Virus record (IMG/VR): IMGVR_UViG_3300006109_000424
Coordinates: 7,617-71,616 of that record
Strand: one strand, 5' to 3'
DNA: 64,000 nt
Source: a virus
Both the position numbers and the translations under genes were made by a program. Positions 11,753 through 62,891 of the stretch are shown here, piece after piece (position 1 is the first letter of the stretch; every line of letters starts with the position of its first letter). The notes beneath the pieces are model-generated. The model was not told where the DNA came from. It did no database searches and was given only the letters and a program-made list of their open reading frames with translations.

Positions 11753-12940
11753 ATGGCCTTTCACTTTGTATACGATAGAGCCTATGATCACCGTCCCTGG
11801 CCCAACCTGACACCTGTAGAACCTGTAAAAGACGGCAGCTTCCGGCGCCTGGGCGATAGTTGGCCGCGTATAGCACCCTGCAGACTGCTCATGTACTGTG
11901 AGGATCATGCTTATCCCTACACAGTGTCATATGTCACCGACACCATACCCGCCGGTGCCTGGTATCCCATTGGCCTGGCCTGGTTTGACCATGATCTGGA
12001 CTATTTTGCACTGATTCCCGAAAACACACTAGATCTAGTCCGAAACAGGCAGTTGACTGTGCTGTTTTACTATCACGAAGGTGACAATCCGGTTCGGGAA
12101 AAACAGCGGCTTGATGCCTTGTGTCGGGCGCATGGTCTTGACAGCCAGTGCTATAGATTTGTGTCGGGCAACACAGCAGCCGCCGCACTGGAAGGTTTTG
12201 TCTGGTTCTGCGATCACGAGCTGTTTTACTGGCATGCAGACCAGTCTGCACTACAGGACCTGGGGCCATTGGCACATGATCGGGTCAGACCCTATACCTT
12301 TACCCTGCTGAGTCGCGTACACAAATGGTGGCGTGCCACTGTGGTTGCACATCTGCGCGACCTGGGTCTGTTGGACCGCGCACAGTGGAGTTATGGTGTG
12401 GAATCCTGTGGTGATCTGGCCGAAAACAACCCCATTGAAACGGTTCAACTGCCAGGTCTGGATCTGTCACAATTTGTGGCTGGTGCGCCCTATCGTTGCG
12501 ACACACTCACAGCCGAGCAACACAATGATCATCGGCATCAGGTTGACTCCTTGTATACTGACTCTTACTTGAGTGTGGTCCTGGAAACTCTATATGATGC
12601 CGAACAGTCGGGTGGTGCTTTCATCACTGAAAAGACCTTTAAAGCTGTGCGCAACGGGCACCCGTTTGTGCTGTTTGGTTGTGTCAGCAGTTTGGCCGCT
12701 GTACAGAGTCTGGGCTATAGGACTTTTTCCAGCGAAATCGACGAAACCTACGACACAGTACAGCACAATAGCCAGCGTTTTGCAACCACTGTCCGGGCCC
12801 TGCTGCAGGTGTTGGCACAGGGCAATTTGCACCAGTGGTATCAGCGTTTGGGGCCTGTGATACAATATAATCAACGGCTGTTTGCTGCCAGTAAATACTC
12901 AAGACTTGAAACCCTGGAACAACAGTTACAAAACCCATGA
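11753..12940 (+). CDS. putative glycosyltransferase (TEK-motif), paralog 3
   Basis: VVLET...FITEKTFKAVRNGHPFVLFG...LGYRTF...IDETYD. Confidence 0.6.
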   Translation: MAFHFVYDRAYDHRPWPNLTPVEPVKDGSFRRLGDSWPRIAPCRLLMYCEDHAYPYTVSYVTDTIPAGAWYPIGLAWFDHDLDYFALIPENTLDLVRNRQLTVLFYYHEGDNPVREKQRLDALCRAHGLDSQCYRFVSGNTAAAALEGFVWFCDHELFYWHADQSALQDLGPLAHDRVRPYTFTLLSRVHKWWRATVVAHLRDLGLLDRAQWSYGVESCGDLAENNPIETVQLPGLDLSQFVAGAPYRCDTLTAEQHNDHRHQVDSLYTDSYLSVVLETLYDAEQSGGAFITEKTFKAVRNGHPFVLFGCVSSLAAVQSLGYRTFSSEIDETYDTVQHNSQRFATTVRALLQVLAQGNLHQWYQRLGPVIQYNQRLFAASKYSRLETLEQQLQNP

Positions 12941-13989
12941 CCCAGTTAATTATACCCATTGCCAATCAGACCGCTTACCGCACGATACCCAGAAATCGTG
13001 AGCTGGGTCATGTGATTGATCATCACTGTGACAAGCCCGCACGCAGCCTGGTCATAGACTGGAAAGGTGACTGTTTTATCTGCAGTTGTGAAGCCTGGTT
13101 GCCCATACCGGTCGGGCACATCCGGCAGTTTGAACGTCTTGAAGACATATGGCTCAGTCCGGTGGCTCGGCAGTTACAGGCCACCATCACAGATCGTAGC
13201 TATGCCGAATGTGCTGTGGATCGCTGTGGTATTCTGGACGGTGACATACTGCAGGATCACTACACTGTCAGCATCAACATAGACGAAAGTTGCAATTTGG
13301 CCTGTCCCAGCTGTAGATCTGAGTCCATCATGCTGTCTTCGGGTGCTGACTACCAAAACAAGCTGGACTGGAGTCGTCACATAGTGGGTCTGTTGGAAAA
13401 GACCGATTTGCCAGTTTGGATCATTATGAGTGGCAACGGAGACCCTTTGGCCAGTGCCATCATGCGGCCCTTGTTGCATCAGTATCGGCCCCGAGCCGCA
13501 CAACGTATTCGCTTGTATACCAATGGACTACTGTTGCAAAAACAACTGTCCAAGAATACCATTGCTGATCATATTTTTGAATACTTTATCAGTGTAGATG
13601 CCGGTACAGCAGAGGTTTATGAACAGGTCAGACTGGGCGGCAGCTGGGCACAGTTGCTGAAGAATTTTGATTTTTTAAAATCCATTACCGATCAGAATCA
13701 TGCTCAGGTCCTGCTGTTGTTTGTGCTACAACAGGCCAACTATCAAGACATGGAAAACTTCATTCTACTGTGTCAACGCTACGGATTCCGTGGCTGGATC
13801 AATCGTGTGGAAAACTGGGGAACCTGGCAGGATTTTGCTGCGCATGATGTGATTGGCAATACCGCACATGAACTGCATGTGCCCACTGTGCAAAATCTGC
13901 GCTCGGTGTATCAACGCTATGCCAGTGATCAGATCAGGTTTGAGTCAAGTCTAGAGCGGCTAGCCAAGGATAAAAGTCCGATCGTGTGA
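12937..13989 (+). CDS. radical SAM protein with N-terminal twitch/SPASM-like domain
   Basis: CNLACPSC; N-terminal C..P...L.IDWKGDCFICSC...CAVDRC; GNGDPL; YTNG; SVDAG. Confidence 0.85.
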   Translation: MTQLIIPIANQTAYRTIPRNRELGHVIDHHCDKPARSLVIDWKGDCFICSCEAWLPIPVGHIRQFERLEDIWLSPVARQLQATITDRSYAECAVDRCGILDGDILQDHYTVSINIDESCNLACPSCRSESIMLSSGADYQNKLDWSRHIVGLLEKTDLPVWIIMSGNGDPLASAIMRPLLHQYRPRAAQRIRLYTNGLLLQKQLSKNTIADHIFEYFISVDAGTAEVYEQVRLGGSWAQLLKNFDFLKSITDQNHAQVLLLFVLQQANYQDMENFILLCQRYGFRGWINRVENWGTWQDFAAHDVIGNTAHELHVPTVQNLRSVYQRYASDQIRFESSLERLAKDKSPIV

Positions 13990-14611
13990 TGTTGGTCAAT
14001 AATGGATCACCTGTTGCATGCCACTGGCCCTGTAGAGGCAAGGCCTGTTGATACAGTTGAATATCTGCATCTAAAAAGTTCTTTTCCAGGCGGTGATGAT
14101 CGTCTACATACTGCTGTTTCAAACGGTCTAGATCGAGTCTGGCCTGTTGTGTGTTTTTGCGTGCCGGATCCTGACTGAGGTTTATTCTGGGCACCGGAAC
14201 AGCAATTTCTACTCCATGGTGCCGTAGATAGTTCTTGACCAGGATTTCGTAGTTGTAGTAGGTCTGATCAATTATGAAAAATTCAGTGCGTTTGAGAATG
14301 TCAGCTGGTATCATTTGACTTACCGGATAGCTGTGTTGATCAAACACAGCCGAAACCAGTAGGCGATTGACCTGTGTATTGTACAGCAGATCACATTGAT
14401 CGGTCTGTTCCAAGTATTCAATCACACCCATGGTGTGTCTGACCGCCGGCCAGCGTAGAAACGCAAAAAACCTAAATTGTTCCAGGTCTACGTTGGGTCG
14501 TAACAGATCTGTCATTTGCCACCCCAAGTTGTCAAATACCTGAGACCAACTACGACATGCGTTCTTGGCTAGGCTTATCCAGGCTAGACGGTTGTTGTGA
14601 TGAAAGTACAT
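13934..14611 (-). CDS. sulfotransferase-family-like protein
   Basis: WISLAKNACRS (PAPS 5'-PSB-like) and FAFLRWPAVR (3'-PB-like). Confidence 0.5.
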   Translation of the reverse strand: MYFHHNNRLAWISLAKNACRSWSQVFDNLGWQMTDLLRPNVDLEQFRFFAFLRWPAVRHTMGVIEYLEQTDQCDLLYNTQVNRLLVSAVFDQHSYPVSQMIPADILKRTEFFIIDQTYYNYEILVKNYLRHHGVEIAVPVPRINLSQDPARKNTQQARLDLDRLKQQYVDDHHRLEKNFLDADIQLYQQALPLQGQWHATGDPLLTNITRSDFYPWLAALDLTQT

Positions 14612-14612
14612 G

Positions 14613-15872
14613 CTAGCTCCACTCTCGAGCTAGCCAGGGCCACAGGCTAGTCCAGTCAGTGCCGCGACGGCGATCCAGTTCAGTCAGATAGATCTTTAGA
14701 TCCTGTATGCGTTCGGGATCTCTAGGGGCCTGGCTGATCTGTTGCTGTATGCCGGCCATGTGTTCACGTGCATGACAGTGACGATCTGTGTGTGTGGGCA
14801 TGGCCGCTAGGATACGTTCAAAGGCCTGATCAAACACACCAGCGCCAAATATGTCAGGTACCAGTTCCAGGGGGTTTGTGGCCGACATAAAGCTGAAGTG
14901 TATGCCCTGTTCCGGACGAACCGCTTCCCAGGCGTTGATGCGTTCAATCAGCTCGGGCAGGGTGTCTATGGTCAAGCTGGTTATGGCCGCGTTTACACTG
15001 AGTGTGATCCAGGGTCGATCTAGACAGTAAGTGAAGTTTTCTTCCCATTCTGCCAGGTCCAGACCCCAGCGCACATATTCTTCCTGCGGGCCCCAGGCAT
15101 CTAGACTGCCGGTTATCTGCAGTCTTGACAGTTTGCCGTCGGCCACCATGCGCTCAAATCGATCTATGTAGGCACGAAAACGTGCAGGTGCTACCTTTAG
15201 ATTGGTAATCATGTTGAAGGTCAAGTCCGGATTGGCATGTGTTTCCCAGAATTCCAAGCTGGTATCAAATTCGGTCTGATAAAACGGTTCTCCGCCCAGG
15301 ATCTGATAGTAGCGTATTCGACGGTAGTTGTCGTTGGTTTCTAACCACTGCCAAAAGTCCGCCAGCATGCGTTCATAGTGCGGATTGGTACGGCCTGGGT
15401 ATCCAAACTCAACACGGCCCGATTTGAACACACCATAGCGACGGTTTTCATCGGCCCACTTGCTACTGAAGTGTTCACCACAGTACACACAGGCCATGTT
15501 GCAGGTATTGTTGAAGTAGATTTCCAGTATGGTAGGTACCACTGCTACCGCACCCGGATCAGTCCACAGTTCTGTGGGTATACGATCTGCATTGCCCGAG
15601 TCGGTCAGCTGATACTGTCGATCGCTCATGCCACCTGCGGCTTCGATGCGTTCACAGTACTGACATCCAGCCTGTGGCCAGCCGCCCTGCTTCATCAGCT
15701 CACGTGCAGCTATCTTTTCGGGTTGATTGTGGAAGTTGCCAAAGTTCTCAGGATCTATGGCATGCTGATCCACTCGATGACAGCTGCTGGTGGTGCCCTG
15801 TCCTAGATATATGGTGCTCCAGGCCCATTTGAGCACACAGGCTGTATCGCTTTTGATTGGAAATGTTTTCAT
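14613..15872 (-). CDS. N-terminal twitch-domain radical SAM protein
   Basis: CVLKW...SSCHR...GCQYC then CNMACVYC, GGEP. Confidence 0.88.
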   Translation of the reverse strand: MKTFPIKSDTACVLKWAWSTIYLGQGTTSSCHRVDQHAIDPENFGNFHNQPEKIAARELMKQGGWPQAGCQYCERIEAAGGMSDRQYQLTDSGNADRIPTELWTDPGAVAVVPTILEIYFNNTCNMACVYCGEHFSSKWADENRRYGVFKSGRVEFGYPGRTNPHYERMLADFWQWLETNDNYRRIRYYQILGGEPFYQTEFDTSLEFWETHANPDLTFNMITNLKVAPARFRAYIDRFERMVADGKLSRLQITGSLDAWGPQEEYVRWGLDLAEWEENFTYCLDRPWITLSVNAAITSLTIDTLPELIERINAWEAVRPEQGIHFSFMSATNPLELVPDIFGAGVFDQAFERILAAMPTHTDRHCHAREHMAGIQQQISQAPRDPERIQDLKIYLTELDRRRGTDWTSLWPWLAREWS

Positions 15873-17374
15873 GAGTGTACTCGCACACCATACTGTGCTT
15901 CAAAACGATCTGCATCAGATCGGTCGTTGACCATGGGTTCTCCCCTGATGTTAAGGCTGGTGTTTAGGAGCATGGGGCAGCCGGTAGCAGCGTACCAGGC
16001 TTCCAACAGTGCTCTTATTCCTGATCCATCTTCAGGTACAGTCTGTATCCTACTGGTACCATCCACGTGGGTAACAGCAGGAAACAGGTCAGGACGCCGG
16101 CAACGGCCAACGATCTGCATATACCTACTGTCAACAAAACCGCCAGGCATGTCAAAATAGTCCGCAACATGCTCCTCCAAAATGACCGGTGCAAAGGGTC
16201 TAAACTGCTGTCTACGTTTGATTCGATTTACCTGCTCCTTTATATCTGATCCCCGCGGGTCGGCCAGTAGACTTCTATTGCCCAGCGCTCGGGGTCCAAA
16301 TTCTGCCCGTCCTGACGCAACTCCACAGATCCGATCCTGTAGTAGACTGTGTACACAGGCATCAACCGGATAAGGTCCTGGAATTGTTCGTCCTAGATAG
16401 GCGTTGCGCCAATTGACAGGGCCACCAAGGGCCAGGGCAGCAGCGCCTAGGCTACTGCCGGCATCGCCTGGGCAGGGCATGATCCAGATGTTTTCAAAAT
16501 ACCTGCCCAAGTTTCTGTTGGCCAGGCAATTGAGTGCTACACCACCCTGATATACCAGGTTTGTGCTCCAGTTGAAAGCACGAGCACGTGCCATTACACT
16601 GCCAATCAGTTCTTCTGCTAGTCGCTGTGCAGCTCCCGCAATGTCCTCGGGCTCGTGTCCACACATAAAGCCGGCAGATACTCCAGCATGTAGATTCTGT
16701 CTAAAACGCACCTGTTCCACACTGTCTACCAGCTCAGCGGCCATGCCCTGGGCTAGATCTTCAGTGTTGCGTCCATAAGCGGCCATGCCCATGGTTATGT
16801 ACTCTTCGTCCAGGGGATGTAGACCCACACGTTCAGTGATGGCACTGTAAAACAGGCCTATCGAGTGCGGGTAGCGTTGTACCCATAACCGCTGGTACAC
16901 AGCACGACCCTGTCCATCATACTCAGCTCCATATATGCTCACTGTATCAAACTCGCCTATGGCGTCAATGACCACCACAGTGGCACGTTCAAATGGGCTG
17001 GTTTGAAAGCCTGCAGCTGCATGGCTCAAATGATGACTGTAACTGCGTTCATTTACGGCTTTGTGCTGATACCAGGCACCCAATTGACGCCGTATTGCAC
17101 CGCCGGTGGTCCAGGGCCCAGTGGGCCGTTGCCCAGAATATATTTGCTGTAGATTATGCATCCAGGGCCGCTCGTAGTATGCTATAGTCGCAAACTCATA
17201 GTCACACAGTTCTGCCAGTAGTCCTTCACTCAGGTTGGCATCATTCTTCCGCTTGCTGTAACGTTCTGCATGCCCGGCAAACACTATGTTACCGGCGCTG
17301 TCTAACACAGTGGCAGCAGCATCGTGAAATCCAGCACTGATGCCTAAGATATACTGATCTGTTGCCAGTTTCAT
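15869..17374 (-). CDS. O-carbamoyltransferase (NodU/CmcH/TobZ family)
   Basis: GISAGFHDAAA, HHLSHAA, VIDAIGE, GGVALNC, EFGPRALGNRSLLADPR, FRPFAP, HVDGTSRIQTV, LNTSLNIRGEP. Confidence 0.95.
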   Translation of the reverse strand: MKLATDQYILGISAGFHDAAATVLDSAGNIVFAGHAERYSKRKNDANLSEGLLAELCDYEFATIAYYERPWMHNLQQIYSGQRPTGPWTTGGAIRRQLGAWYQHKAVNERSYSHHLSHAAAGFQTSPFERATVVVIDAIGEFDTVSIYGAEYDGQGRAVYQRLWVQRYPHSIGLFYSAITERVGLHPLDEEYITMGMAAYGRNTEDLAQGMAAELVDSVEQVRFRQNLHAGVSAGFMCGHEPEDIAGAAQRLAEELIGSVMARARAFNWSTNLVYQGGVALNCLANRNLGRYFENIWIMPCPGDAGSSLGAAALALGGPVNWRNAYLGRTIPGPYPVDACVHSLLQDRICGVASGRAEFGPRALGNRSLLADPRGSDIKEQVNRIKRRQQFRPFAPVILEEHVADYFDMPGGFVDSRYMQIVGRCRRPDLFPAVTHVDGTSRIQTVPEDGSGIRALLEAWYAATGCPMLLNTSLNIRGEPMVNDRSDADRFEAQYGVRVHS

Positions 17375-17472
17375 TTATAGATAAACGGGTCTCGCTTGCG
17401 CAGTTCTCGCAGCTTTTTACGGTAGCGTATTTCCAATTGAATACGGTTGATTAGGTTTTTAATCCAAGACAT
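17371..17472 (-). CDS. 33-aa basic peptide ending RDPFIYK (not in ORF track)
   Basis: MSWIKNLINRIQLEIRYRKKLRELRKRDPFIYK*; stop overlaps the carbamoyltransferase ATG (ATGA); fills the operon gap. Confidence 0.75.
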   Translation of the reverse strand: MSWIKNLINRIQLEIRYRKKLRELRKRDPFIYK

Positions 17473-18515
17473 TGTATTTGTTGTTCCTTGTAGTTGGGAT
17501 CCGACCAATGATAATCATACACAACACTGGCTGTGCTGGTTCTAATGGCCACCACATTTAGGCGTGTATTTAACTGTCGCCAGATCTCTCGGTAATCTTC
17601 TGTGCCAAAGCTTCTGATCAAATCCACCTGGCCCACCTGGGGATGTCCTATGGTCAGACTCCGGTCATCGGGGTCAAATCCGTTGCCGATCAGCCAGGTT
17701 CTAAAGTTGTTCAAGTTGCGAGTTTGCCAGGGTGCACCTGCAGGATTCTGTGCCCACTCTATGTCAAAATCGCCGGCAGCTTCTGTTTGTGGTTTTAGTG
17801 TTGTGGTTGTTAACAAGTCAGTACGATGATCTGGATCATACTGGGCTTCGTCTACAAACACTTCCCAGTGATGCTTGCCCACGGCCTTGTTTACACCCAC
17901 AAATACTCCGCCCGTGGGTCTATTGATACTTTCGATACCAAACAGCTCGTAGTCTGCTTCTTCCAGCACAAAGCGCGGGCTGTTTAACCAGCACATGAGC
18001 TGACTGGGACGCATCCATTCAGGTTGTGTGTGTTTTTTACGCCAGCTCAAGGCCCAGGATTCAAATTCGTGACACAGACCGTTTAACTGGCGTATGTGCC
18101 ATCTTGTGCTGGCATCAGCTGCGGTGTAGAACGCACTCATGGCACCGCTTACACCCTGTAGATCTTCAAAGTAGCGATGCAGTTGATTTAATCTAGGCTG
18201 AACAATTTCAAGATTACTGTCTAGTACTGTGTCCAGGGCAAAGTGATCTGTGATGGTGTAGCCCGGTACAGCGGCATTGATTTCTGCTATGCTGGCATTG
18301 ATTTGATCCATCAGGTAAGCACCCGAGCGATCACCGTCGGCAAATCCAAAGAAGCAGTAGTTCTTTTCCAGGTGATACTGTTGATCAATCAGGTGATTCA
18401 GGGCGGCCAACCACCGGCGACTCAGGCTAGAATCCTGCACATCAATGTACACAGTCTGTACCCGGTCTGGGCGGCCCAGATCCATTTCAATAACATCAAG
18501 CAGCAATTGCGTCAT
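17451..18515 (-). CDS. hypothetical protein of the radical SAM operon
   Basis: ~354-aa ORF overlapping both neighbours; LHRYFEDLQG, CHEFESW; no family recognised. Confidence 0.75.
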   Translation of the reverse strand: MTQLLLDVIEMDLGRPDRVQTVYIDVQDSSLSRRWLAALNHLIDQQYHLEKNYCFFGFADGDRSGAYLMDQINASIAEINAAVPGYTITDHFALDTVLDSNLEIVQPRLNQLHRYFEDLQGVSGAMSAFYTAADASTRWHIRQLNGLCHEFESWALSWRKKHTQPEWMRPSQLMCWLNSPRFVLEEADYELFGIESINRPTGGVFVGVNKAVGKHHWEVFVDEAQYDPDHRTDLLTTTTLKPQTEAAGDFDIEWAQNPAGAPWQTRNLNNFRTWLIGNGFDPDDRSLTIGHPQVGQVDLIRSFGTEDYREIWRQLNTRLNVVAIRTSTASVVYDYHWSDPNYKEQQIQCLGLKT

Positions 18516-19791
18516 ACCATTCCAATATTTCGTTGTCACTGCTCAATATGTCGGCCAGTGTAAGAGTATCCCCGCGGATCTGTTCCAATCGTAGCACACG
18601 CTGTTTGCCTCGAATCAGCCCGGCTTGATACTGATCTGGCCACTGTTCTGCAAACACCGGGCGGTTTTTCAACTGTAACAGCACATCTCTTAGTGCGCTG
18701 TTATTTAAGTTGGCCACTAGACTGTCAACTTTTTTGTCCAAGACTGCTCGGGGCAGTGCCAGCGGGCTCAAGACAATATCAGGTGTAAAGCTGAATATGA
18801 CCTTGGCCAGGACATCTACTCCAAATTTGTCGGCCAACTGTTGGATGTTGGCAACCTCAAAAAGACCCGGAAGGGTGAGGGTAAAGTCGATTCGCATCTG
18901 TCGCCGGTGGGTAGATATGTTGCATCCCATCTCAAAGTTTCTACACCAGGTGTCATAGTCAAGTCCAGTTCTGATGTACTCACCTGTGGCTCCAGTACCG
19001 TCCAGACTTGCACAGATTTGCCAGTCCCTAAGATGAACCAGGATATCACTATAAAGATTAATAGACTTGTAATCAACCCTACTAAGATTGGTATTGTATC
19101 TAGCGTATACGCCATTTCCGTCTCCTTGATCTACAATTTGTTTCATATAACGCCAATGCTGTTCGTACATCAAGGGTTCGCCGCCGACCCAGTAGACTTC
19201 TTCTACACGATGTTCAGCCACAGCCTGAGCAAATTCTGCTTCAATCTGCGTGTCTTGAAACCGACTTATTTCGGCCCTTACTTCGGGTCGCATCCAGTTG
19301 TTTTTGGGATTTGTCCAGTCTATCATGTGGTGTTGCCGTTGTTCTGACTCCCATGCACTGCTCAACATGTCTCCGCAGGTACGGCATTTGAAATTGCATA
19401 GATTACTGAAACGATAATCCCAACTGACCGGCTTGACTGTGGTGTAACCAGTTGCATCGGTTGCGGCCATCACTGTTTCGTACTTGTGGCCAAACAGTTG
19501 ATTAAAATAACTGCGATAAACATCGGTGTTCAGCAGTTTGTCGTTGCAGACTGCACATTCAGGCAGGGTTTCTCCGGCCATCATGCGGCGCCGCACTGAT
19601 CGCATGTGCTCGCTGTTCCAGTGCTCATCCAGAGTCAAGGGATGATATCGTCCTGTTCCAGAATCGGTATCTATGTACTGTTCAAAGCTCTGTGCAGGTT
19701 CTCTTGATGCACAGCACATGCGTCGTTCGGTTTGTGGGCTCAAATAGGTATGAGTCCAGGCGGCCATGCACAAGGTATCGGGTTTATTCAT
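18496..19791 (-). CDS. N-terminal twitch-domain radical SAM protein
   Basis: CMAAWTH...MCCAS...CAVC then CNFKCRTC, GGEPL, YNTN. Confidence 0.9.
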   Translation of the reverse strand: MNKPDTLCMAAWTHTYLSPQTERRMCCASREPAQSFEQYIDTDSGTGRYHPLTLDEHWNSEHMRSVRRRMMAGETLPECAVCNDKLLNTDVYRSYFNQLFGHKYETVMAATDATGYTTVKPVSWDYRFSNLCNFKCRTCGDMLSSAWESEQRQHHMIDWTNPKNNWMRPEVRAEISRFQDTQIEAEFAQAVAEHRVEEVYWVGGEPLMYEQHWRYMKQIVDQGDGNGVYARYNTNLSRVDYKSINLYSDILVHLRDWQICASLDGTGATGEYIRTGLDYDTWCRNFEMGCNISTHRRQMRIDFTLTLPGLFEVANIQQLADKFGVDVLAKVIFSFTPDIVLSPLALPRAVLDKKVDSLVANLNNSALRDVLLQLKNRPVFAEQWPDQYQAGLIRGKQRVLRLEQIRGDTLTLADILSSDNEILEWYDAIAA

Positions 19792-20989
19792 ATGCAATTA
19801 ACTTTGCAAACTCAGGAGCCACAGCAACAAGATTTTCATTGCGTCTTGCATCTACCCGGCGTATTTCCTCCAGCATCTGTGTGCCCAGGTCCTGTGTGCC
19901 ACGATTCATAAAATCTAAGATATTTGCAAATTCTTGTTGATGTCTTGCACTGACCTTGGCCTGCAGCAGTCGATCAGTCACAGCCTGTTTTACCACCACA
20001 GGCAAGTTGGCAATGCTAAAATACGGAGCATCGTGCATGATGTTCCAGTAGACAAAATCAAACGCCTGGGTATCGATCCAATTGGCCAGACCTTCAAGAT
20101 ACATGACATTGAACACGTTCACAGTACTACAAACCTGTAGCTGTATATTGCTGTGCTGTTTGCGCAACAGTCGAAACAGTTCCAGATTGCGTTCAACATC
20201 GGACCAAACAGCACCGGATCTTTGATACTCAAATCGGTCTTCTACATCATCAATGCTGACAGCTATTTCAACTGTTTTAAAATGGCGCCAAATTTCAATG
20301 GCCTCGGCTGGCCAATTGGTACCATTGGTATTGTAGTGTATTTCAATACGGTCAGCATGTCCTTGATCTACAATGCGTTGCAACAAATCAAAGTGTTCTT
20401 GAATCATAAAAGGCTCACCACCGGTAAACTCAATGTATTCAAGTTGGTCCAACTGATCAGCAATTTGCTCCCAAAACACTATATTTTCTCTGGGCCAACG
20501 ACCCTGCTCCAGCATTTGATAATGAAAACTTTGTTTACCTGCACCTGATCGATCATGGGCTATTTCTTCTACAGCATAGGTCGACGACGACCACGAGCCA
20601 CAAATGCGACATTTTAGATTGCAGATATTGCCCAGTTTGAGATCAAGAAACATCAAGGGTTTGGCATCTACTGTCCATGTTTGATCGGGCAACATGTGTT
20701 TGAGCCTATTTAATGTATGCATACGTTTGCTGGTACGACCTGCATCTTCTTCATTCCAACATTTACGGCAGGTCTTGGGTTGACCGCCGGCCAAAAATTC
20801 AGACCTTAGATCCTGCATGTCTTGGCAGTTTTGCACAGCATCAAATGCAGCTGTCTTGAGATTAAACTTGTTGCCGTTGTGATCTCGCAATTCATTGTCG
20901 GCCAAACAACAGGGTCGTACTGTGCCAATAGGGCTGGTTTCTAAACTGACCCAAGGCAGTACACAAAATTTGCCATGTGGTATTTTCAT
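19784..20989 (-). CDS. N-terminal twitch-domain radical SAM protein
   Basis: FCVLPW...PCC...CRKC then CNLKCRIC, GGEPF, YNTNG; ATGA overlap start. Confidence 0.9.
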   Translation of the reverse strand: MKIPHGKFCVLPWVSLETSPIGTVRPCCLADNELRDHNGNKFNLKTAAFDAVQNCQDMQDLRSEFLAGGQPKTCRKCWNEEDAGRTSKRMHTLNRLKHMLPDQTWTVDAKPLMFLDLKLGNICNLKCRICGSWSSSTYAVEEIAHDRSGAGKQSFHYQMLEQGRWPRENIVFWEQIADQLDQLEYIEFTGGEPFMIQEHFDLLQRIVDQGHADRIEIHYNTNGTNWPAEAIEIWRHFKTVEIAVSIDDVEDRFEYQRSGAVWSDVERNLELFRLLRKQHSNIQLQVCSTVNVFNVMYLEGLANWIDTQAFDFVYWNIMHDAPYFSIANLPVVVKQAVTDRLLQAKVSARHQQEFANILDFMNRGTQDLGTQMLEEIRRVDARRNENLVAVAPEFAKLIAYE

Positions 20990-22242
20990 TGCAATGCGGC
21001 CAATTCTGGAATGACATTCAATATGTTTTGGCCACGAATTTGATCGAGTTTGTGTGTCTTGCGCCAAAAGGTATCTAACAAATGCGTGTTGTCTGTGGCC
21101 TGTAAAAAGTTGATGGCACTTTCAAATCCCACTGTGGCCCGTTGCAGTGGATCCAGCGGGCGCAACCATTCAAGATGTTTCTGATAACGTTCAATCAGCT
21201 GTTGTTTATATGCAGGTGTTGCAATGTCAATACGGAAATATGTAGGATCTTGAAGTATGTTTACATTTAAATCTTGTGGGCGGATCAATCCAGTTTCTGC
21301 CCACTGACGATGAAAGTCCGGTAAGCTCCAAGCATTCATTATGCTCAGTGTGGGACTGATATAAAAATCCACGTTGGGACAGGTTTGAATCATTTCTATG
21401 CGATTGGCAATGACCCGATGCCACTCGGTCCCTTGACGTATATATTCGGCACGACCGTGTTGATCATCTAAACTGGCTCCAACTGCTACACTTTTGAATC
21501 GTTTCCAGTAATCAAACACTGTACGATTTTTTAATTTGACATGCGTAAAGTTGGTGTTATATATGAGTCTCACATCAAAACGTCCGCGACGTTCCAATTC
21601 GTCTAGAATATTGTAGTGTTCTGCCATCATCAAGGGTTCGCCACCAGCAAAATATATCTGCTCCACATAGTCCAGGTGCGGAACCAATTGTTCCCACATG
21701 TCGGTTTCGGTGCGGCCGGCATAGTTCAACACTTGGTTACGGTCTTTCCAATCGCCTCCGGCCAACCGGGCTTGATCCTGGTACCAGCTACTACTGAATA
21801 TGTGTCCACAACTACGGCAACTTAGATTACACAAGTTACTGAAGCGTATGTCCCAGTAGCTCATGCGAAATTCGTCGTCGTCGATGCGCTTGATGTGATG
21901 TCCGTGATGTTTGTTGGCACTACGACGTCCGCTGAAGAATCCCGATTCTTCTTGCTCATAACAACGACCACATGCAGGATTAGGACGTTCGTTTAGCATG
22001 TCGTTGCGTAGCTCTCGCATGGGAGCATCGCGATAGATTTCTTCCAGGCTCTTGAATCGGGTATTGCCCACAGGATATGCCATTTCGGCATGACAACACG
22101 GGTATGCTTCGCCAGTGGGGTAAGCATGTAAGTGTATCCAGGGATAGATACAAAATGTCTTTGAATCCTTTAATAGGAATTCTTCTCGTTGGTCAAGCTC
22201 TACCGGCCGGACTAAATCTGCTGAATTATACTTGTAGGTCAT
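20986..22242 (-). CDS. N-terminal twitch-domain radical SAM protein
   Basis: FCIYPW...PCC...CGRC then CNLSCRSC, GGEPL, YNTN. Confidence 0.9.
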   Translation of the reverse strand: MTYKYNSADLVRPVELDQREEFLLKDSKTFCIYPWIHLHAYPTGEAYPCCHAEMAYPVGNTRFKSLEEIYRDAPMRELRNDMLNERPNPACGRCYEQEESGFFSGRRSANKHHGHHIKRIDDDEFRMSYWDIRFSNLCNLSCRSCGHIFSSSWYQDQARLAGGDWKDRNQVLNYAGRTETDMWEQLVPHLDYVEQIYFAGGEPLMMAEHYNILDELERRGRFDVRLIYNTNFTHVKLKNRTVFDYWKRFKSVAVGASLDDQHGRAEYIRQGTEWHRVIANRIEMIQTCPNVDFYISPTLSIMNAWSLPDFHRQWAETGLIRPQDLNVNILQDPTYFRIDIATPAYKQQLIERYQKHLEWLRPLDPLQRATVGFESAINFLQATDNTHLLDTFWRKTHKLDQIRGQNILNVIPELAALQ

Positions 22243-23569
22243 TGTACCAGTCTGCTAATGTGGGAAATGTCTTGACAAAATCTTTGCTGCGACGGGCATC
22301 GTATTGTTGGTGGAACTGACGAAAATCATTGTGTAGTTTGGGCATATCAAAGGCATCACTGTGTGGAGTTTTGACCACATCTAAATAATCAATCAAGCGT
22401 TGCACATGATTTAGTTCATGCTCGTGCAGGTAGGGATTGCGGTAGTTGCGGTTCCAAAAATCCTGCAACTGATCTCGATACCCAGTACGAAACTCTATAG
22501 GCAATATCAAGGCTGATTGGAAACTGGGGAAACGCAATATATTTAGTGTAAAATTCACACGCTCGCGCCCATACTGTTGCTTGAGTTCCAGCAACTGATA
22601 CAACAAATTGGGCAAGCGTTCTAAACACAGAGCGTTAATGGTGCACATGCAATGTACAGCCTGTATGCTGTCTTGTTCCAACAGTGTTATTACATTGTCC
22701 ATCCATTGCTGATAGTCCAGACCATCACGTATATATTCGGCTTGATCGTCTACGCTTTCCATGCTGGTGTATATTTCCAAATGAGGAATACCTGTGATCC
22801 GATCAACAAACTCTTGTAACTTTTCGGCATCCATGCCCAGGTTGCTGTTGATGGCCAACCGAGTGCTACTACGGCCTCGATTGTCTTTGAACCAATCAAT
22901 CAGCTTCCAGGTCTCGCCCGACATGAGTGGCTCACCGCCAGTGATTCTCAGCTCCTGTAGTGTTTGATGCAGGTCAGTTTCCCACCAGGCAAAGAATGCC
23001 TCCACATAGGGATTGGTTTCTCCAAAACGGTACAGCTGGGCTGAATCGTGTGGGTGCGTAAAATGATTGCGGCCGTCGCTGACAAGATTTGTGTAGGCGC
23101 CGTTGGTTTTGATATCTTTGACCCAGGTACTGGAGAACGCTGGATTGCAGTAGCTGCAAGCAAACTGACAGGTACGATCAAATGCAATTTCGAGTGTGCG
23201 CAGATTGACATCCTGCTCGGCCGGAGTTTGATAGGCCGTATCCAAGGCTTCTAGGGGATAAATTTTACTTTTGTACACACGGTCGCTGACAGCATCTCGA
23301 CCCATGTCTTCAATTTTCCAGCAGTATTCACAACCAGCGGGACGCTCTCCAGCCAACATTTTTGCACGATCCTGTTTCTTTTGTACAGTGTTGTGTATGG
23401 CTCGAGGATTTGTTTTAAGGGCCTCTGTATCTATTGAGTGTGCCGGAGGATGGTGACAACTAGTGGTTTGTCCTGATCCTAACCATATGGTAGCATTGTA
23501 CCACTTTGCAGCACAAAAACTGTCACTTTTGGTGTCTAATACTTGTTGTCGAAATTCTAAATCATTCAT
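22226..23569 (-). CDS. N-terminal twitch-domain radical SAM protein
   Basis: FCAAKW...SCHHP...GCEYCW then CQFACSYC, GGEPL. Confidence 0.9.
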   Translation of the reverse strand: MNDLEFRQQVLDTKSDSFCAAKWYNATIWLGSGQTTSCHHPPAHSIDTEALKTNPRAIHNTVQKKQDRAKMLAGERPAGCEYCWKIEDMGRDAVSDRVYKSKIYPLEALDTAYQTPAEQDVNLRTLEIAFDRTCQFACSYCNPAFSSTWVKDIKTNGAYTNLVSDGRNHFTHPHDSAQLYRFGETNPYVEAFFAWWETDLHQTLQELRITGGEPLMSGETWKLIDWFKDNRGRSSTRLAINSNLGMDAEKLQEFVDRITGIPHLEIYTSMESVDDQAEYIRDGLDYQQWMDNVITLLEQDSIQAVHCMCTINALCLERLPNLLYQLLELKQQYGRERVNFTLNILRFPSFQSALILPIEFRTGYRDQLQDFWNRNYRNPYLHEHELNHVQRLIDYLDVVKTPHSDAFDMPKLHNDFRQFHQQYDARRSKDFVKTFPTLADWYNDLQV

Positions 23570-24185
23570 TGGTCAATTCCAAATTATTTTGTTCTAATAC
23601 TCGACCACACTCAGCCAAAAAATTTTCGTAGTCTGCAGATTTATGCATGGCATTGTACGACGACTGGACCAGGTCCGATGCTACAGTTTCGTAACACAAT
23701 TCCATCTTCATAAAAGTCCTGCACTGGGTATATTCTTCGTGCAACCGAGCAAGTCTTTTTGCCTGATTAGGCAAGTAACCTATGTGTGGTGCAGTTTTGT
23801 CCTGTTGTGCTGGACAATCCTTGGGATTATGCCAGACTTCTGAGCCATAGGCTGTGGCAAAACTGGCCAATTGGGCTACTCGATCTTTTCGATAGATACC
23901 GATTATATAACTGTTGCTGAATAATGAATCAAAATAGCTGTCAGGGGGAATTTGGTCGCACATGAGTTTAACTATACAAGGTTGTGCATTGGCTCGATAT
24001 CGATCATATTCTCTACCTCTCCTGCGGAAATGAAATGCTTCGTCTAAATTTGGGTATCCAGTAATGCGATGCAGAATATTACACAAGGCTGTACTGCCGG
24101 TACGATAATTGGCCAATACAATTATACTTTGATTTTGCGGAAAAGTAAACCTGCACTGTGCCAGTTGGATCTCAAATGTATTCAT
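23562..24185 (-). CDS. Stf0-like sulfotransferase-family protein
   Basis: LANYRTGSTAL P-loop-like; YRKDRVAQLASF...WH; YE motif. Confidence 0.55.
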   Translation of the reverse strand: MNTFEIQLAQCRFTFPQNQSIIVLANYRTGSTALCNILHRITGYPNLDEAFHFRRRGREYDRYRANAQPCIVKLMCDQIPPDSYFDSLFSNSYIIGIYRKDRVAQLASFATAYGSEVWHNPKDCPAQQDKTAPHIGYLPNQAKRLARLHEEYTQCRTFMKMELCYETVASDLVQSSYNAMHKSADYENFLAECGRVLEQNNLELTNE

Positions 24186-25317
24186 TGATAAACTGAAAAA
24201 AACGGTTTGGAAATTCTTTGCGGACTCGAATCCGCATTTCTACCAAGTGTTGTTGATTGTATTTACATACATCCTCGGCAGCCTTTAGGAAACTGGCCAA
24301 ATCTTGATGGCACAAATCTTTCACCACCTGTGCGATGCGCATGATACGGTCTTGGGGATCATCAATTTGATCAAATGATTCGTCGATTAGGTGTCCCCAG
24401 GTGCGGAATCCTAAATTGTGAAAATCTCTATAGTAGCCCTGATTTGCAACAAAAATGGTAGGGTGACCCATGGCTATCGGTTTCCAAGTTTTTTCTGTAC
24501 GGAAACTGTAAGGATATTCAAATACGGTTTCGGTTACCACACTAAAATAGGTGTCAATATACGGGGCAGCTTTGAGATAGATGTCGCCCCATTCGTTGTT
24601 AAACAAGTGATATTTTACAAAAAGATCTTGATCAGTGTTGAGCGCCGGAACTCCAATTTGTGATTGATAACGATCAACTTCATATTGAATTGGTAAATGC
24701 TGCACAGGAAAAACAGTATAATCTTTTGCTCCTAATTCGTTGGGTAACTTAAATGGTCGTAGTTTGAGAGGTCTTGAATCTAAGTTGGTCCACAGGCTTT
24801 GTTCCAGTAAACCCCAATGACAAAACAATTCAAGTAGGAATTTTCTATGCGACCGGCCGCGACCATTAAGAAATAAAAATTTGTAAGGTTTTTGTATCTT
24901 GGAAAATATTTCTCGACCGCAAAACATTTCAACTAAATTTTCTTCAGGGTCTAAAATTTTAGTTAAAAAAATGTCGTACTGTAAGCATGGCCAGGTAGTA
25001 TCCATGTCACCACCGCCGATTAGCAATATCTTTTTGTTGTGCACCAAATCAGCAGTACGTGTGACCTGGTCACAATGTGTTTTCATTGTGTCGGATCCTT
25101 CCATTGGGTTGCTCAGTACTGGTAAGATTGTACCAGCTTCGGCTAATTTGCGTATGCGATCAACGTTGAGATTAAATTGTTCTCTACCGATAAGGTAGAT
25201 AGCACCAGGAATAACATCGTGAGTTGAAAATTCCCAAAATTCTGCGTCTGCATAGGATTTTATTAGATCGTATACTTCGCAAAAGGTATCCAGAACAACT
25301 TTACGATTGGCGAGCAT
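24172..25317 (-). CDS. putative glycosyltransferase (TEK-motif), paralog 4
   Basis: FLFLNGRGRSHR, VVTETV...RTEKTWKPIAMGHP...LGFRTW..LIDESFD. Confidence 0.6.
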   Translation of the reverse strand: MLANRKVVLDTFCEVYDLIKSYADAEFWEFSTHDVIPGAIYLIGREQFNLNVDRIRKLAEAGTILPVLSNPMEGSDTMKTHCDQVTRTADLVHNKKILLIGGGDMDTTWPCLQYDIFLTKILDPEENLVEMFCGREIFSKIQKPYKFLFLNGRGRSHRKFLLELFCHWGLLEQSLWTNLDSRPLKLRPFKLPNELGAKDYTVFPVQHLPIQYEVDRYQSQIGVPALNTDQDLFVKYHLFNNEWGDIYLKAAPYIDTYFSVVTETVFEYPYSFRTEKTWKPIAMGHPTIFVANQGYYRDFHNLGFRTWGHLIDESFDQIDDPQDRIMRIAQVVKDLCHQDLASFLKAAEDVCKYNQQHLVEMRIRVRKEFPNRFFQFINEYI

Positions 25318-27238
25318 AGTACTCACATTCGCGCCACCAAGCGGCCATTTCTGGAAATGTAGTTAAAAAGTCGGTGCCATGTCGCCGGTCGGCTTCTGCA
25401 AAAAAACGATAAAAATCTGCTTTTTGCTGTTTAATGTATATTGGATCTAACTTTTGTCCATCACGCATCCAAGCAATGTCTCTGTCAAGTCGAGAAATTT
25501 CGTAATCTTTGAATCCTTGAAAACGTGTGGCTTCGGTTTCGATCTGACGTATCATCCAGGCCCATAAATGTTCTAACTGTTCTACGTAACTTTCTGGCAA
25601 GATTTGTAGACTTTGCCAGGTGGGTTGCCGTAATACCGGAGTATCAAACCATACACGCTGATAGGTCTTTGAATACAACTTACGCAGGCCTAGTATGCCG
25701 GCAAACAGACTACTGAGATTGGTCACCGATAGATTGTTCATGGTCACAATAAAGGTTATGCTGTTGCGCCCTGGTATTTCTGTTAAGAATTGATTTACAC
25801 GATCCCATAATAAATTAAAATCTAAACCGTTACGGATATATTCAGCCTGTGCCCCCCAAGAATCTATACTAATGTATTGCATGAAATGTTCAATCTGTTC
25901 GCCTTCGCATAGTTGCTTGACATAGCCTTTGTATCGTTGCCACGACTTTTCGTCCACACTAAAGTTGCTGGTCACATTCAAGTGCAGGTCTGGCTTGGGA
26001 TTGGCCAACACATAGTCAAACACACGATAGGTATTTTTGTCCAGCATGGGTTCGCCGCCGGTCATTCTGAAATGTTCTAGCTCTGGATATAGTTGAGGCC
26101 ACCAAGACCAAAATGCATCTACATAGAGATTGTCCTCTCTTACCGGAATTGGTTTACGATCCCCAGTGAAATAACTAGGATCATTGTGTTGAGTGCTAGT
26201 GGGATAAGCGCCAAACTGATCCACTTCCTGTTGCCAACTTGAACTAAATTGAGGGCTACAGTAGCTACATTTAAGATTGCAAGCGTGATTAAAATTAACT
26301 TCAACATAACTAGGTGTAATATCATCGTCCCATTCTCCACTTACAATTTTTCCAAAGTCTTTGGCAGCCCAAGACTCGCCGCTGCGATAGTGTCGATCAC
26401 TTAGTTTGCCGTTGTCTTCCATGGCCCAACAATAATTACATTCACTGGGTCTTTCTCCTTTTAACATCAGCTGTCTTTGAGTTTTTTTATAGGCGGTGTT
26501 ATGCAACCCACTAGGACTACGTTGGATATCTTCTAGTTGAATTTTGTGTAAAGGAGGATGATAGCAGGAATTATTAAGTCCTGTAGTTAAATGTAGACTT
26601 ACCTGTTTCCATTTTGCTAGACACATGCTGGGACTTATTTTGTCCAAGCGTTGTTTCATTATTTCGGCGTCGTTAAGAAATTTACTCTTAAATCCATCTA
26701 CAATTTTATCTCCTGGTACCATTGATAAGTCATGTTCTATGTGTTCGGCGCTGACCTGATCGTATTCAGCAGAATCAATACTGTTTAGTTCTTTTCGCAT
26801 AATTTTGGCAAATTCCGAGTTGTCTGTGTCAATATTAATTATACTAGTAGCACCCAAGGTATCCATTGGATATTCGTTATAGTATCGACGATGATAGGCA
26901 GTGTGAGCTCGAGCATGTTCTAATTTATTAGGCATGTTTTTATTTTTATGCTGATCTGCAAGATACCATTCTCTCTTTAAACTTTTGCCTAAATCTGCTT
27001 GTAGTACAATAATTTCTCTTTGGTTAGGAAATAGTTTTTTAATCAGTGGAACATTTACGCAATGGGTCAGTATTAATTCGCAGTCTGCTAGGTCAGACTG
27101 TGTGGTCAAATATCGATAATCGGGCAATTGATTGGTTAATAAATGATCATAGGTGGTTTGTGTTTTAAAATCCCGTTGGCCGGCTAGATAACGATAATAC
27201 CTATTTCCGCCGGCGCCAGGATAAAATGCAATAACCAT
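25301..27238 (-). CDS. fusion of a sulfotransferase-like N-terminal domain with a twitch-domain radical SAM protein
   Basis: N-terminal AFYPGAGGNR; from about aa 200 MCLAKW...SCYHP...CNYCW, CNLKCSYC, GGEP. Confidence 0.85.
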   Translation of the reverse strand: MVIAFYPGAGGNRYYRYLAGQRDFKTQTTYDHLLTNQLPDYRYLTTQSDLADCELILTHCVNVPLIKKLFPNQREIIVLQADLGKSLKREWYLADQHKNKNMPNKLEHARAHTAYHRRYYNEYPMDTLGATSIINIDTDNSEFAKIMRKELNSIDSAEYDQVSAEHIEHDLSMVPGDKIVDGFKSKFLNDAEIMKQRLDKISPSMCLAKWKQVSLHLTTGLNNSCYHPPLHKIQLEDIQRSPSGLHNTAYKKTQRQLMLKGERPSECNYCWAMEDNGKLSDRHYRSGESWAAKDFGKIVSGEWDDDITPSYVEVNFNHACNLKCSYCSPQFSSSWQQEVDQFGAYPTSTQHNDPSYFTGDRKPIPVREDNLYVDAFWSWWPQLYPELEHFRMTGGEPMLDKNTYRVFDYVLANPKPDLHLNVTSNFSVDEKSWQRYKGYVKQLCEGEQIEHFMQYISIDSWGAQAEYIRNGLDFNLLWDRVNQFLTEIPGRNSITFIVTMNNLSVTNLSSLFAGILGLRKLYSKTYQRVWFDTPVLRQPTWQSLQILPESYVEQLEHLWAWMIRQIETEATRFQGFKDYEISRLDRDIAWMRDGQKLDPIYIKQQKADFYRFFAEADRRHGTDFLTTFPEMAAWWRECEYYARQS

Positions 27239-61161: not shown

Positions 61162-62178
61162 ATGACAAATCTATTCCGCAAGGCAGCTGTTTGTACGGAT
61201 ATCCACTTTGGACTCAAATCAAACAGCCTGGTCCACAATCAGGACTGCGAAGCATTTATCGACTGGTTCATAGCCACAGCCCGAGAGCAAGGTTGCGAAA
61301 CCGGCATGTTCCTGGGCGATTGGCATCATCATCGTGCTAGTATCAATCTGCAAACTTTACACTTTAGCCTGCGTAGCCTACAAAAACTTTCGGCGGCCTT
61401 TGAACAGTTTTACTTTATTCCCGGCAATCACGACCTATACTATCGTGACAAGCGTGACATACACGGTGCCGAATGGGCACAGCACCTACCCAATATCACA
61501 GTAGTCAACAACTGGTTCAAACAGGATGACGTGATCATTGCGCCCTGGCTTGTGGGCGACGATTACAAAAAATTGCCCAAGATGCAGGCCAAATACATGT
61601 TTGGACACTTTGAGTTACCACACTTTAAAATGAATGCCATGGTAGAAATGCCTGACCACGGTGAAGTCAAGGTAGAATCATTTGGCGGCATTGAGTCAGT
61701 GTACTCGGGTCACTTTCACTTGAGACAAAGCAAGCGTAACATCAACTACATTGGCAACTGCTTTCCACACAACTTTGCTGATGCCGGCGACGAAGCTCGT
61801 GGCATGATGATCTTAGAGTGGGGTCGACCTGAACGCTATATGGCTTGGCCGGATCAACCACTCTATCGTGTGATGAAGTTGAGTGAGGCCATTGACAACA
61901 GTGTAAATATACTCCGTCCCAACATGCATGTACGTGTAGAACTGGACATTGATATTTCATACGAAGAGGCCAACTTTATCAAAGAAACATTTGTACGAGA
62001 TCATAATCTAAGAGAAATGGCTTTGATCCCTTCAAAGCGAACCGACATAGACATTGACTTGGCACCGGGCGAAGTACGATTTGAAAGTGTGGACCAAATT
62101 GTGACCGACCAGCTGACCAATATCGAAAGTGAATTTTACGATCCCAAACTTCTGTTGAAGATCTATCAAAACCTATGA
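61162..62178 (+). CDS. gp47: recombination endonuclease subunit, T4 gp47/Mre11/SbcD-like
   Basis: TDIHFG, LGDWHH, PGNHD, GHFE, SGHFH metallophosphoesterase motifs. Confidence 0.92.
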   Translation: MTNLFRKAAVCTDIHFGLKSNSLVHNQDCEAFIDWFIATAREQGCETGMFLGDWHHHRASINLQTLHFSLRSLQKLSAAFEQFYFIPGNHDLYYRDKRDIHGAEWAQHLPNITVVNNWFKQDDVIIAPWLVGDDYKKLPKMQAKYMFGHFELPHFKMNAMVEMPDHGEVKVESFGGIESVYSGHFHLRQSKRNINYIGNCFPHNFADAGDEARGMMILEWGRPERYMAWPDQPLYRVMKLSEAIDNSVNILRPNMHVRVELDIDISYEEANFIKETFVRDHNLREMALIPSKRTDIDIDLAPGEVRFESVDQIVTDQLTNIESEFYDPKLLLKIYQNL

Positions 62179-62891
62179 AACTGTACTTCAACGGATGTAG
62201 TCATACATATGGCGATGATTTATCTAATCGCGATGCCGACTCGTGGCCAGCGGTATTGTCAGCAGTTAAAGGATGTACTTTTTTGAATGATAGCATTTCG
62301 GGTGGATCCAATGACCGCATCGTATACCGAACTTTGAAACATGCTGAGGAATTTGACAAATTTTACATTGCTTGGACCTACACTAGCCGATTTACTCGAT
62401 ATAGAGCCGATAATAATTTTGAGATCAACTTTAATAGTCAATTAAAAAATTCTTTGTATGGCAATGATACAGATTTTAAAACCTATGGAAAACTGCACTA
62501 TGCTGTTTGGCATAACGAACTTTATGCCTTTAAACTTTGGTTACAACAGATAATATTATTACAAAGATTTTTTGAGTCTATCAAGAAACCATATCTAATG
62601 ATCAATGCCGCTAACAACTTAATAGATCGGTGGACTGTTGGTTGGAGAGATTTCAATAATAGTGTAAACTCACTACTGTGCTTTGATCAAATGAATGACG
62701 AACAACTATACAACGAACATCTTGAGATACAAAAACTAGTGTCTCAAATTGATTTCAATCACTATGTTGACTGGAATTCCTGGTGGATCACCAAGCCCAA
62801 GGCAGATTATCCTTGCGGTGCTACAGGGCACCTACTCGAACAGGGACATAGGGCCATAGCCGACTTTATATTGACTCATGATACGAATTAA
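62175..62891 (+). CDS. SGNH/GDSL-like hydrolase or acyltransferase
   Basis: FNGCSHTYG, GGSNDRI, WT...R, TGHLLEQGH. Confidence 0.65.
   Translation: MKLYFNGCSHTYGDDLSNRDADSWPAVLSAVKGCTFLNDSISGGSNDRIVYRTLKHAEEFDKFYIAWTYTSRFTRYRADNNFEINFNSQLKNSLYGNDTDFKTYGKLHYAVWHNELYAFKLWLQQIILLQRFFESIKKPYLMINAANNLIDRWTVGWRDFNNSVNSLLCFDQMNDEQLYNEHLEIQKLVSQIDFNHYVDWNSWWITKPKADYPCGATGHLLEQGHRAIADFILTHDTN

Follow-up and report, generated by a model that had tools for sequence, protein, structure and literature searches.

Analysis of a 64,000-nucleotide stretch of virus DNA (positions 7,617 to 71,616 of the IMG/VR record IMGVR_UViG_3300006109_000424, a 71.6-kb virus fragment; the whole stretch is called the window below) showed a gene for a peptide of 33 amino acids (aa) directly ahead of a gene for a NodU/CmcH-type carbamoyltransferase (CT). 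The 33-aa open reading frame (ORF) is a real, coding gene under strong purifying selection, and the gene that most constantly accompanies it is CT. The peptide was shown to be co-inherited with one clade of NodU/CmcH-type CTs across phages and bacteria. Its conserved core was shown to be a C-terminal basic stretch and a DPFIY tail, with 0-1 residue between that tail and the C-terminus; the core is either free or tethered to an SGNH-like protein. The DUF5989/SxtK proteins found beside other CTs were shown to have the same motif order with a membrane helix inserted. The peptide family can best be regarded as a new, membrane-free version of the poorly understood 'small protein beside a carbamoyltransferase', and not as a phage system for peptides that are made on the ribosome and modified after translation (RiPPs). 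Its members probably serve as small helper or docking proteins and not as substrates for modification.

The 33-aa peptide gene and its conservation

The peptide gene and the genes on either side of it are given below.

17371..17472, minus strand: mini-protein gene of 33 codons plus stop (ATG at 17472-17470 and TGA at 17373-17371, by translation)
17485..17489, minus strand: Shine-Dalgarno (SD)-like AAGGA, 13-17 nt ahead of the ATG, within the 3' end of the upstream ORF
15869..17374, minus strand: CT, NodU/CmcH-type carbamoyltransferase, 501 aa (Pfam Carbam_trans_N, 1.4e-34; Carbam_trans_C, 3.4e-48)
17451..18539, minus strand: U362, a family-less protein of 362 aa (no Pfam, NCBIfam or PHROGs match)

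A preliminary description of this DNA had proposed a 33-aa ORF at 17371-17472, with its TGA overlapping the ATG of CT, and had seen it as filling a gap in the operon. Translation bore out both points. The peptide stop and the CT start have the four bases ATGA in common, and the single gap of the operon is filled and slightly overlapped by the peptide gene, since U362, ending at 17451, runs 22 nt into the start of that gene. The peptide consists of an N-terminal hydrophobic/basic stretch (with W3), an invariant Y17-R18, a basic stretch at residues 16-27 and the invariant D28-P29-F30-I31-Y32, followed by K33. It contained 11 Lys and Arg and 3 Asp and Glu residues (net charge +8), with no hydrophobic run and no Cys.

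Viral contigs were scanned with CT (296 relatives, of which the best 80 were kept) and with the peptide (416 relatives, 80 kept). The conservation beside CT homologues that had been put forward as a check was found: the peptide gave a tblastn match at E<1e-3 in 75 of the 80 CT-centred phage loci, and a small plus-strand ORF terminated by the motif was present in 155 of 160 phage loci. Frame, length and start codon were invariant. An SD-like motif at -18..-4 was found in 130 of 154 homologous copies, and 128 of the 154 had the ATGA overlap with the following gene.

Among 54 distinct nucleotide versions, the per-site pairwise differences at codon positions 1, 2 and 3 were 0.239, 0.122 and 0.481, respectively. 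The proportions of synonymous (pS) and nonsynonymous (pN) differences were 0.81 and 0.156 overall, with synonymous sites near saturation, and pN/pS was 0.35 over residues 1-13 but only 0.086 over residues 14-33 (pS 0.80 there). Arg, Leu and Pro codons were swapped freely with the residues unchanged, so the constraint acts on the protein and not on an RNA or DNA element. Identity to the window copy was 63-88% in one alignment of the peptide and 45-88% in a second, against 53-78% for the adjacent CT, the peptide being the more conserved of the two.

An exhaustive profile search of 1.84 billion representatives returned 216 proteins at E<=1e-3, with 28 at E<=1e-10; almost all of the 216 were 27-100 residues long, and many were exactly 33-34. 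No membrane helix was found among 150 listed relatives of the peptide. Divergent members retained the spacing of W3, Y17-R18 and D-P-(F/Y)-x-Y at 28-32, with 0-1 residue after the Tyr. The exact window peptide is on record in a 26-member cluster, all members of which are 'hypothetical protein' or unnamed. The family had no match in the four profile libraries used, Pfam, NCBIfam and PHROGs among them, and its profile had none among PDB sequences at E<=10. A tblastn search of GenBank phages with the peptide gave no match, and the low-complexity filter may mask so basic a peptide in that search; masking is suspected because the copy in the cultured Ralstonia phage RsoM2USA surfaced only via the gap upstream of its CT. 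The peptide profile found five loci among genome contigs, all on contigs of metagenome-assembled genomes (MAGs), and a three-row alignment of divergent members found one viral locus and no genome locus. Bacterial copies, which have diverged too far for a scan with the peptide profile, were found only via CT.

A claim that the peptide forms an amphipathic helix was dropped: the hydrophobic moment was 0.59 (residues 2-16), but 1640 of 5000 shuffles reached the observed value (residues 1-18). Membership of PriX (PF18689) was rejected as a compositional likeness among basic helices; 19 of 148 relatives matched weakly at profile positions ~58-89, one of them at 25.5 bits (cut-off 25), and the window peptide had no match.

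L021 and L023 (5272-5373 and 5891-5992) and L030 (5114-5215 and 5897-5998) have the peptide gene in duplicate, with a different gene after each copy. The database proteins P0002 and P0004 look like tandem two-copy fusions, one with an internal DPFIYK. The family matches P0064 and P0104 have other N-terminal parts, of which one is a glutamine amidotransferase fragment (Pfam GATase_7) and the other resembles, by eye, the start of a sugar-phosphate cyclase; either may be an additional fusion, or an artefact of gene calling on a short contig.

Linkage to the carbamoyltransferase in phages and bacteria

Of the 80 peptide-centred phage loci, 78 had CT 0.1-1.7 kb downstream of the peptide and 77 had U362 upstream of it. 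The two loci without CT were one that ends 1.1 kb past the peptide and the contig L148. The commonest phage gene order was two radical S-adenosylmethionine (radical SAM) genes, U362, the peptide and CT. The second commonest was a radical SAM gene, U362, F3, the peptide, F3 and CT, where F3 is DUF6071 (GDSL/SGNH-like); 61 of 159 phage loci had a gene of the DUF6071 family in their flanks.

At least 10 loci had the peptide and CT without U362, including the cultured RsoM2USA (GenBank MG752970). In this phage, a 36-codon, unannotated ORF of the peptide family (L196:6026-6136) fills the 109-nt gap between RsoM2USA_201 and _200, which are DUF6071 paralogues, one gene ahead of CT. 'Hypothetical protein' is the annotation of all 24 neighbours there, which include CT and a radical SAM gene. 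Radical SAM genes of peptide-bearing phages numbered 12 and 9 in two contigs and 2 in RsoM2USA. A divergent peptide copy in L203 lies after a methyltransferase gene and 1.4 kb before CT. None of the 12 radical SAM genes of that contig is within 5 kb of the peptide, the nearest being ~6 kb away. The 23.6-kb fragment L073 contained shikimate-dehydrogenase-like, HAD and GatZ-like genes, the peptide and CT, and no radical SAM gene.

For bacteria, genome contigs were scanned with the CT alignment, 80 loci were kept, and all stop-to-stop frames were searched with a hidden Markov model (HMM) of the phage peptide. The bacterial or MAG loci with a CT at least 44% identical to that of the window (n=17) contained nine clear peptides and one doubtful peptide. 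The nine clear copies are membrane-free and basic and end in DPF(I/L)Y, and the doubtful one (L216) is without the Pro. Two of the nine are on phage-like MAG contigs (L204 and L205). Four copies are directly upstream of CT, namely those of Streptomyces hoynatensis, Nocardia, Agromyces and a 636-kb alphaproteobacterial contig. The peptide is downstream of CT in L206 (clear), where it comes just after, and in L216.

A fused form was found in Geodermatophilus amargosae and in a Terrimicrobiaceae MAG, in which the basic helix and DPFIY tail form the C-terminus of an SGNH/GDSL-like protein (337 or 359 aa) and are joined to it through a linker. The fused gene is immediately upstream of CT in both genomes, and the two proteins demonstrated 54% identity over their whole length, tail included (E 1e-124). 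A third fused copy, frameshifted, was found in a Verrucomicrobia MAG. The AlphaFold2 (AF2) model of the fused protein, built from a two-row alignment, had a predicted local distance difference test score (pLDDT) of 40.7 and was unusable.

The bacterial neighbours were glycosyltransferases, a polysaccharide pyruvyl transferase, a major facilitator superfamily (MFS) transporter and, in one case, parts of a non-ribosomal peptide synthetase (NRPS). DUF6071 was directly after CT in three bacterial loci (Streptomyces, Nocardia and Agromyces). None of the 28 neighbouring ORFs scanned at bacterial peptide loci was a radical SAM gene.

A quick maximum-likelihood tree was made from 83 CTs, consisting of 65 of the 80 bacterial loci (the 15 left out had partial matches), 16 phage loci, the window and RsoM2USA. 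All 27 peptide-linked CTs were in one 35-row clade (Shimodaira-Hasegawa-like approximate likelihood ratio test, SH-aLRT, 100), and phage CTs were nested among bacterial ones. The six retained DUF5989-linked CTs were all in the 38-row sister group, with none in the 10-row outgroup. The tree shows co-inheritance and not many independent events, because relatives share labels.

Relation to DUF5989 and SxtK

DUF5989 (PF19451) is a model of 49 positions with a cut-off of 27 bits; members were drawn from 45 of 121 Bacteroidota genomes searched, and a consensus was made from 20 Bacteroidota genomes. The layout consists of an N-terminal helix, RKK, a hydrophobic helix of ~20 residues and APFIY with three residues after it. 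DUF5989 came right after CT in five of the six loci examined, and an SxtJ-family protein adjoined it in four of the six. The earlier statement that such proteins end in PFIY and adjoin CTs thus holds. The bacterial DUF5989 loci examined contained CT and SxtJ and no GDSL gene within 1.5 kb, and genuine DUF5989 was rare in viral contigs (two loci). SxtK itself is presumably a member of PF19451, the backing for this being the SxtJ family that adjoins DUF5989 in the loci examined.

The peptide and DUF5989 are both tiny (33 residues and 49 model positions), have the same order of N-terminal helix, RKK and PFIY, and are encoded beside a NodU/CmcH-type CT. They differ in that the peptide is without a membrane helix, ~18 hydrophobic residues being replaced by a charged stretch of 7, and has 0-1 residue after the Tyr where DUF5989 has three. 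The peptide is usually upstream of CT whereas DUF5989 is downstream, and the CT clades to which the two are linked differ. A search for an SxtJ (PF19588) partner gave no match among 20 window ORFs scanned.

Comparison with the DUF5989 HMM, which the preliminary description had proposed, left the window peptide below the cut-off. Neither the 33-aa nor a 45-aa form of the peptide matched even at E<=10, and there was no match in the window's own record. One of 148 family representatives matched, at 12.2 bits (E 0.2) and over the N-terminal 17 positions only. Local hhalign aligned only DPFIY with APFIY (probability 21%, E 0.0011 for a single comparison). Global hhalign was collinear, with the N-terminus, RKK and PFIY aligned and the membrane helix of DUF5989 falling in one 18-column gap. 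Judged from sequence comparison, the peptide is an analogue or a very distant relative of DUF5989 and not a member, and 'works like' describes the relation, homology being unproven. The earlier proposal of an SxtK/DUF5989-like accessory of CT is therefore kept in part: the genetic linkage to CT in phages and bacteria and the motif likeness support it, and the HMM result, the missing membrane helix and the reversed gene order do not.

In passages of the description of the sxt cluster, the functions of sxtJ and sxtK are listed as 'Unknown' and the gene order is given as sxtI, sxtJ, sxtK and then sxtL, a GDSL-lipase homologue (PMC2679770). SxtI is assumed there to act with SxtJ and SxtK (PMC2679770; PMC12300590), and the assumed SxtI/SxtJ/SxtK complex is repeated in part of a 2025 review (PMC12300590). 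The set of a CT, a small PFIY protein and a GDSL-like enzyme recurs in three settings.

Window cassette and proposed function of the peptide

The window is from a T4-like phage (baseplate wedge, late sigma factor and SbcCD-like genes), and its DNA was present in sequencing runs labelled freshwater metagenome, with no RNA run listed among them. The other features of the window are as follows.

45-767, minus strand, and 1125-2411, plus strand: two HNH endonuclease-like genes at the left end of the window (PHROGs)
4628-5617: epimerase
5559-6647: aminotransferase
12937-13989, plus strand: SPASM radical SAM, the seventh and of a more ordinary type
14613..15872, minus strand: N-terminal-twitch radical SAM, immediately 3' of CT (NF033640, 2.1e-65)
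18496..23569, minus strand: four tandem N-terminal-twitch radical SAM paralogues (NF033640, E 7e-83 to 4e-111), at 18496-19797, 19784-21067, 20986-22242 and 22226-23569
23562..24185, minus strand: Stf0-like sulfotransferase, fragment-sized, 207 aa (PF09037, 4.2e-7)
25301..27238, minus strand: 645-aa protein, the C-terminal two thirds an N-terminal-twitch radical SAM (NF033640, 1.3e-93, residues 202-634)
33785-48211, minus strand: single ORF of 4808 aa, directly after a baseplate wedge gene
62175..62891, plus strand: DUF6071 (SGNH/GDSL-like), the sole one in the window (28.8 bits, cut-off 27)

The 645-aa radical SAM protein is the opening gene of a minus-strand run (27238-13934) of six NF033640 radical SAMs, the Stf0-like sulfotransferase, two family-less proteins, the peptide, CT and a 225-aa family-less protein. 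The cassette at 12937-27238 contained seven radical SAM genes, six of them of the NF033640 type with an Fe-S auxiliary domain preceding the radical SAM core. The G+C content was 0.48-0.51 at 10-20 kb (cassette) and ~0.42 elsewhere in the window. The DUF6071 gene of the window sits between SbcD-like and SbcC-like genes, 45 kb from the peptide. The proteins U376, U379, U395 and U384 (~380 aa each; 9398-12940 on the plus strand and 24172-25326 on the minus strand) had no Pfam or PHROGs family. In tblastn they hit shared regions of related loci, which gives them the look of paralogues, and they recur in most related phage loci.

U362 was undetected in the bacterial peptide loci. Its AF2 model had a pLDDT of 90.4 and a predicted template modelling score (pTM) of 0.88. 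No Foldseek match was found in PDB at E<=0.001, no PDB sequence match below E 0.5 and no Atlas match. VIA-align gave a four-helix insert and rows of cyclophilin-like barrels at Z 8-9 (maximum 9.3), which is within the noise range of the tool and a lead only. Going by the model, U362 may be a new fold, or a much diverged cyclophilin-like protein beside a peptide with an invariant Pro.

The peptide is tentatively read, at somewhat less than an even chance, as a small accessory or adaptor mini-protein of a CT tailoring module that works through its DPFIY tail. The tail would be a docking element for CT, or for CT and the SGNH/DUF6071 enzyme as a pair, and the part ahead of the tail would be an interchangeable handle that decides the cargo, be it a membrane anchor, an enzyme or none at all. 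In the phage, the peptide would stabilise, activate or couple a CT that decorates the product of the cassette. This product may be sugar-like, because a sulfotransferase, an epimerase and an aminotransferase are in the window and APS-kinase-like (adenosine 5'-phosphosulfate kinase-like), DegT, GatZ-like and HAD genes are in related loci. MbtH-like proteins, the small obligate helpers of NRPS adenylation domains, offer an analogy. They too are very small and highly conserved, occur in tailoring clusters without a catalytic motif and accompany one enzyme family, sometimes fused to a cluster enzyme; they differ in having no sequence or fold relation to the peptide.

Several observations weigh against an accessory role at CT. 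Binding of the peptide to CT is a prediction, and the fusion implicates the SGNH-like enzyme as a direct partner at least as much as CT. Along with the peptide and U362, the 141-kb phage contig L148 (40% complete) carries 9 radical SAM genes, but no CT. Conversely, 8 of the 35 CTs in the peptide-linked clade were without the peptide in the flanks examined, and one phage lineage (five loci) keeps CT and the radical SAMs without the peptide and U362, a loss that looks like a single replacement. All four of the more distant phage CTs checked (C48C1, HTVC008M, S-CAM8 and P-SSM2) were without a peptide ORF nearby. The phage loci, many as they are, do not count as independent observations, because kin share neighbours. 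The homology to DUF5989 is also without statistical support (hhalign probability 0.7-21%, HMM cross scores <=4 bits).

The fusion lends itself to another explanation, which is considered somewhat unlikely: the peptide would serve the SGNH/GDSL-like (DUF6071) enzyme, as its partner or as a regulatory tail, acting in cis when fused and in trans when free, and would gate or position an esterase or acyltransferase, for example. CT would then be adjacent merely because both enzymes act on the same product. The fusion occurs in two phyla, with the frameshifted MAG copy in addition; the RsoM2USA peptide lies between two DUF6071 paralogues, an arrangement with DUF6071 on both sides ahead of CT that is also the second commonest in phages; DUF6071 follows CT in Streptomyces, Nocardia and Agromyces; and the GDSL-lipase homologue sxtL comes after sxtI, sxtJ and sxtK in the portion of the cluster description noted above (PMC2679770). 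Against these, DUF6071 is in the flanks of only the 61 of 159 phage loci, the sole DUF6071 of the window is 45 kb off, the commonest phage architecture has none between U362 and CT, and the examined bacterial DUF5989 loci have no GDSL gene within 1.5 kb. A cis-acting translated leader, in which the nascent DPFIYK end pauses the ribosome at the stop and sets translation of the overlapping downstream gene, would explain the residue conservation through contacts with the exit tunnel. Conservation centres on the final ~20 residues, roughly as many as the tunnel accommodates, the 128 of 154 ATGA overlaps are with CT or DUF6071 as the next gene, and the duplicate copies in L021, L023 and L030 each precede a gene. 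This is very unlikely, as the peptide comes after CT in L206 (and in the doubtful L216) and is the C-terminus of an enzyme in two bacteria, DUF5989 is downstream of its CT, and ATGA overlaps are commonplace in tightly packed phage operons.

The preliminary description had also offered the peptide as a RiPP-like substrate of the radical SAM battery. SPASM/twitch radical SAM pathways use ribosomal peptides as precursors or scaffolds (PqqA, MftA, and sactipeptide and cyclophane precursors), and the peptide resembles these as a short conserved gene in a cluster rich in radical SAMs with auxiliary Fe-S domains and in its invariant aromatic residues near the C-terminus. The peptide itself might thus be modified, for example by O-carbamoylation of Tyr32 or C-terminal processing, by CT and perhaps the radical SAMs, or serve as a scaffold on which a small product is built, as PqqA and MftA do. 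Tyr32 invariably stands 0-1 residue from the free C-terminus, the extreme conservation is as expected of a peptide that fits several enzymes, the window cassette has seven twitch/SPASM radical SAM genes, and such genes are usually numerous in peptide-bearing phage genomes (12 and 9 in two contigs, with 2 in RsoM2USA), most of which have the N-terminal-twitch type. A substrate or carrier of this kind is nevertheless unlikely. Linkage tracks CT and not the radical SAM genes: the 28 bacterial neighbours include none, L073 has none, and the nearest in L203 is ~6 kb away. A precursor would be unusual as the fused tail of a 337-aa enzyme, DUF5989 has its three further residues after the Tyr, the peptide has no Cys and no division into leader and core, and a dozen different radical SAM enzymes for one 33-mer would be improbable. 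Scans of the cassette with Pfam, NCBIfam and PHROGs, in which several ORFs had no family, showed no RiPP recognition element (RRE)/PqqD-like domain, peptidase or exporter. The fuller form, in which the peptide is a ribosomal carrier with Tyr32 O-carbamoylated by CT and further worked by SGNH-like and, in phages, radical SAM enzymes, the cassette building or decorating a peptide-borne product and DUF5989/SxtK being the membrane-anchored version, is distinctly unlikely. What probability remains falls to something else.

In the literature searched, no paper was found that mentions DUF5989, DUF6071 or DPFIY, and none that joins carbamoyltransferase, radical SAM, bacteriophage and auxiliary metabolic. 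The peptide gene marks a phage cassette of many N-terminal-twitch radical SAMs, CT and a sulfotransferase, with an APS-kinase-like protein in related loci; the cassette is here in a T4-like freshwater phage, and the gene also went unannotated in a cultured jumbo phage, RsoM2USA. Ever since the description of the saxitoxin cluster, small CT-adjacent proteins (SxtK/DUF5989) have carried the label 'unknown' and were merely assumed to work with the enzyme. With the peptide family comes a second form of such a partner, free of any membrane helix, and two genomes have a form fused to an enzyme. The free, membrane-anchored and fused forms together point to the basic helix and DPFIY tail as the working part, and with one short element in that role the question becomes testable with a 33-residue synthetic peptide and soluble enzymes.

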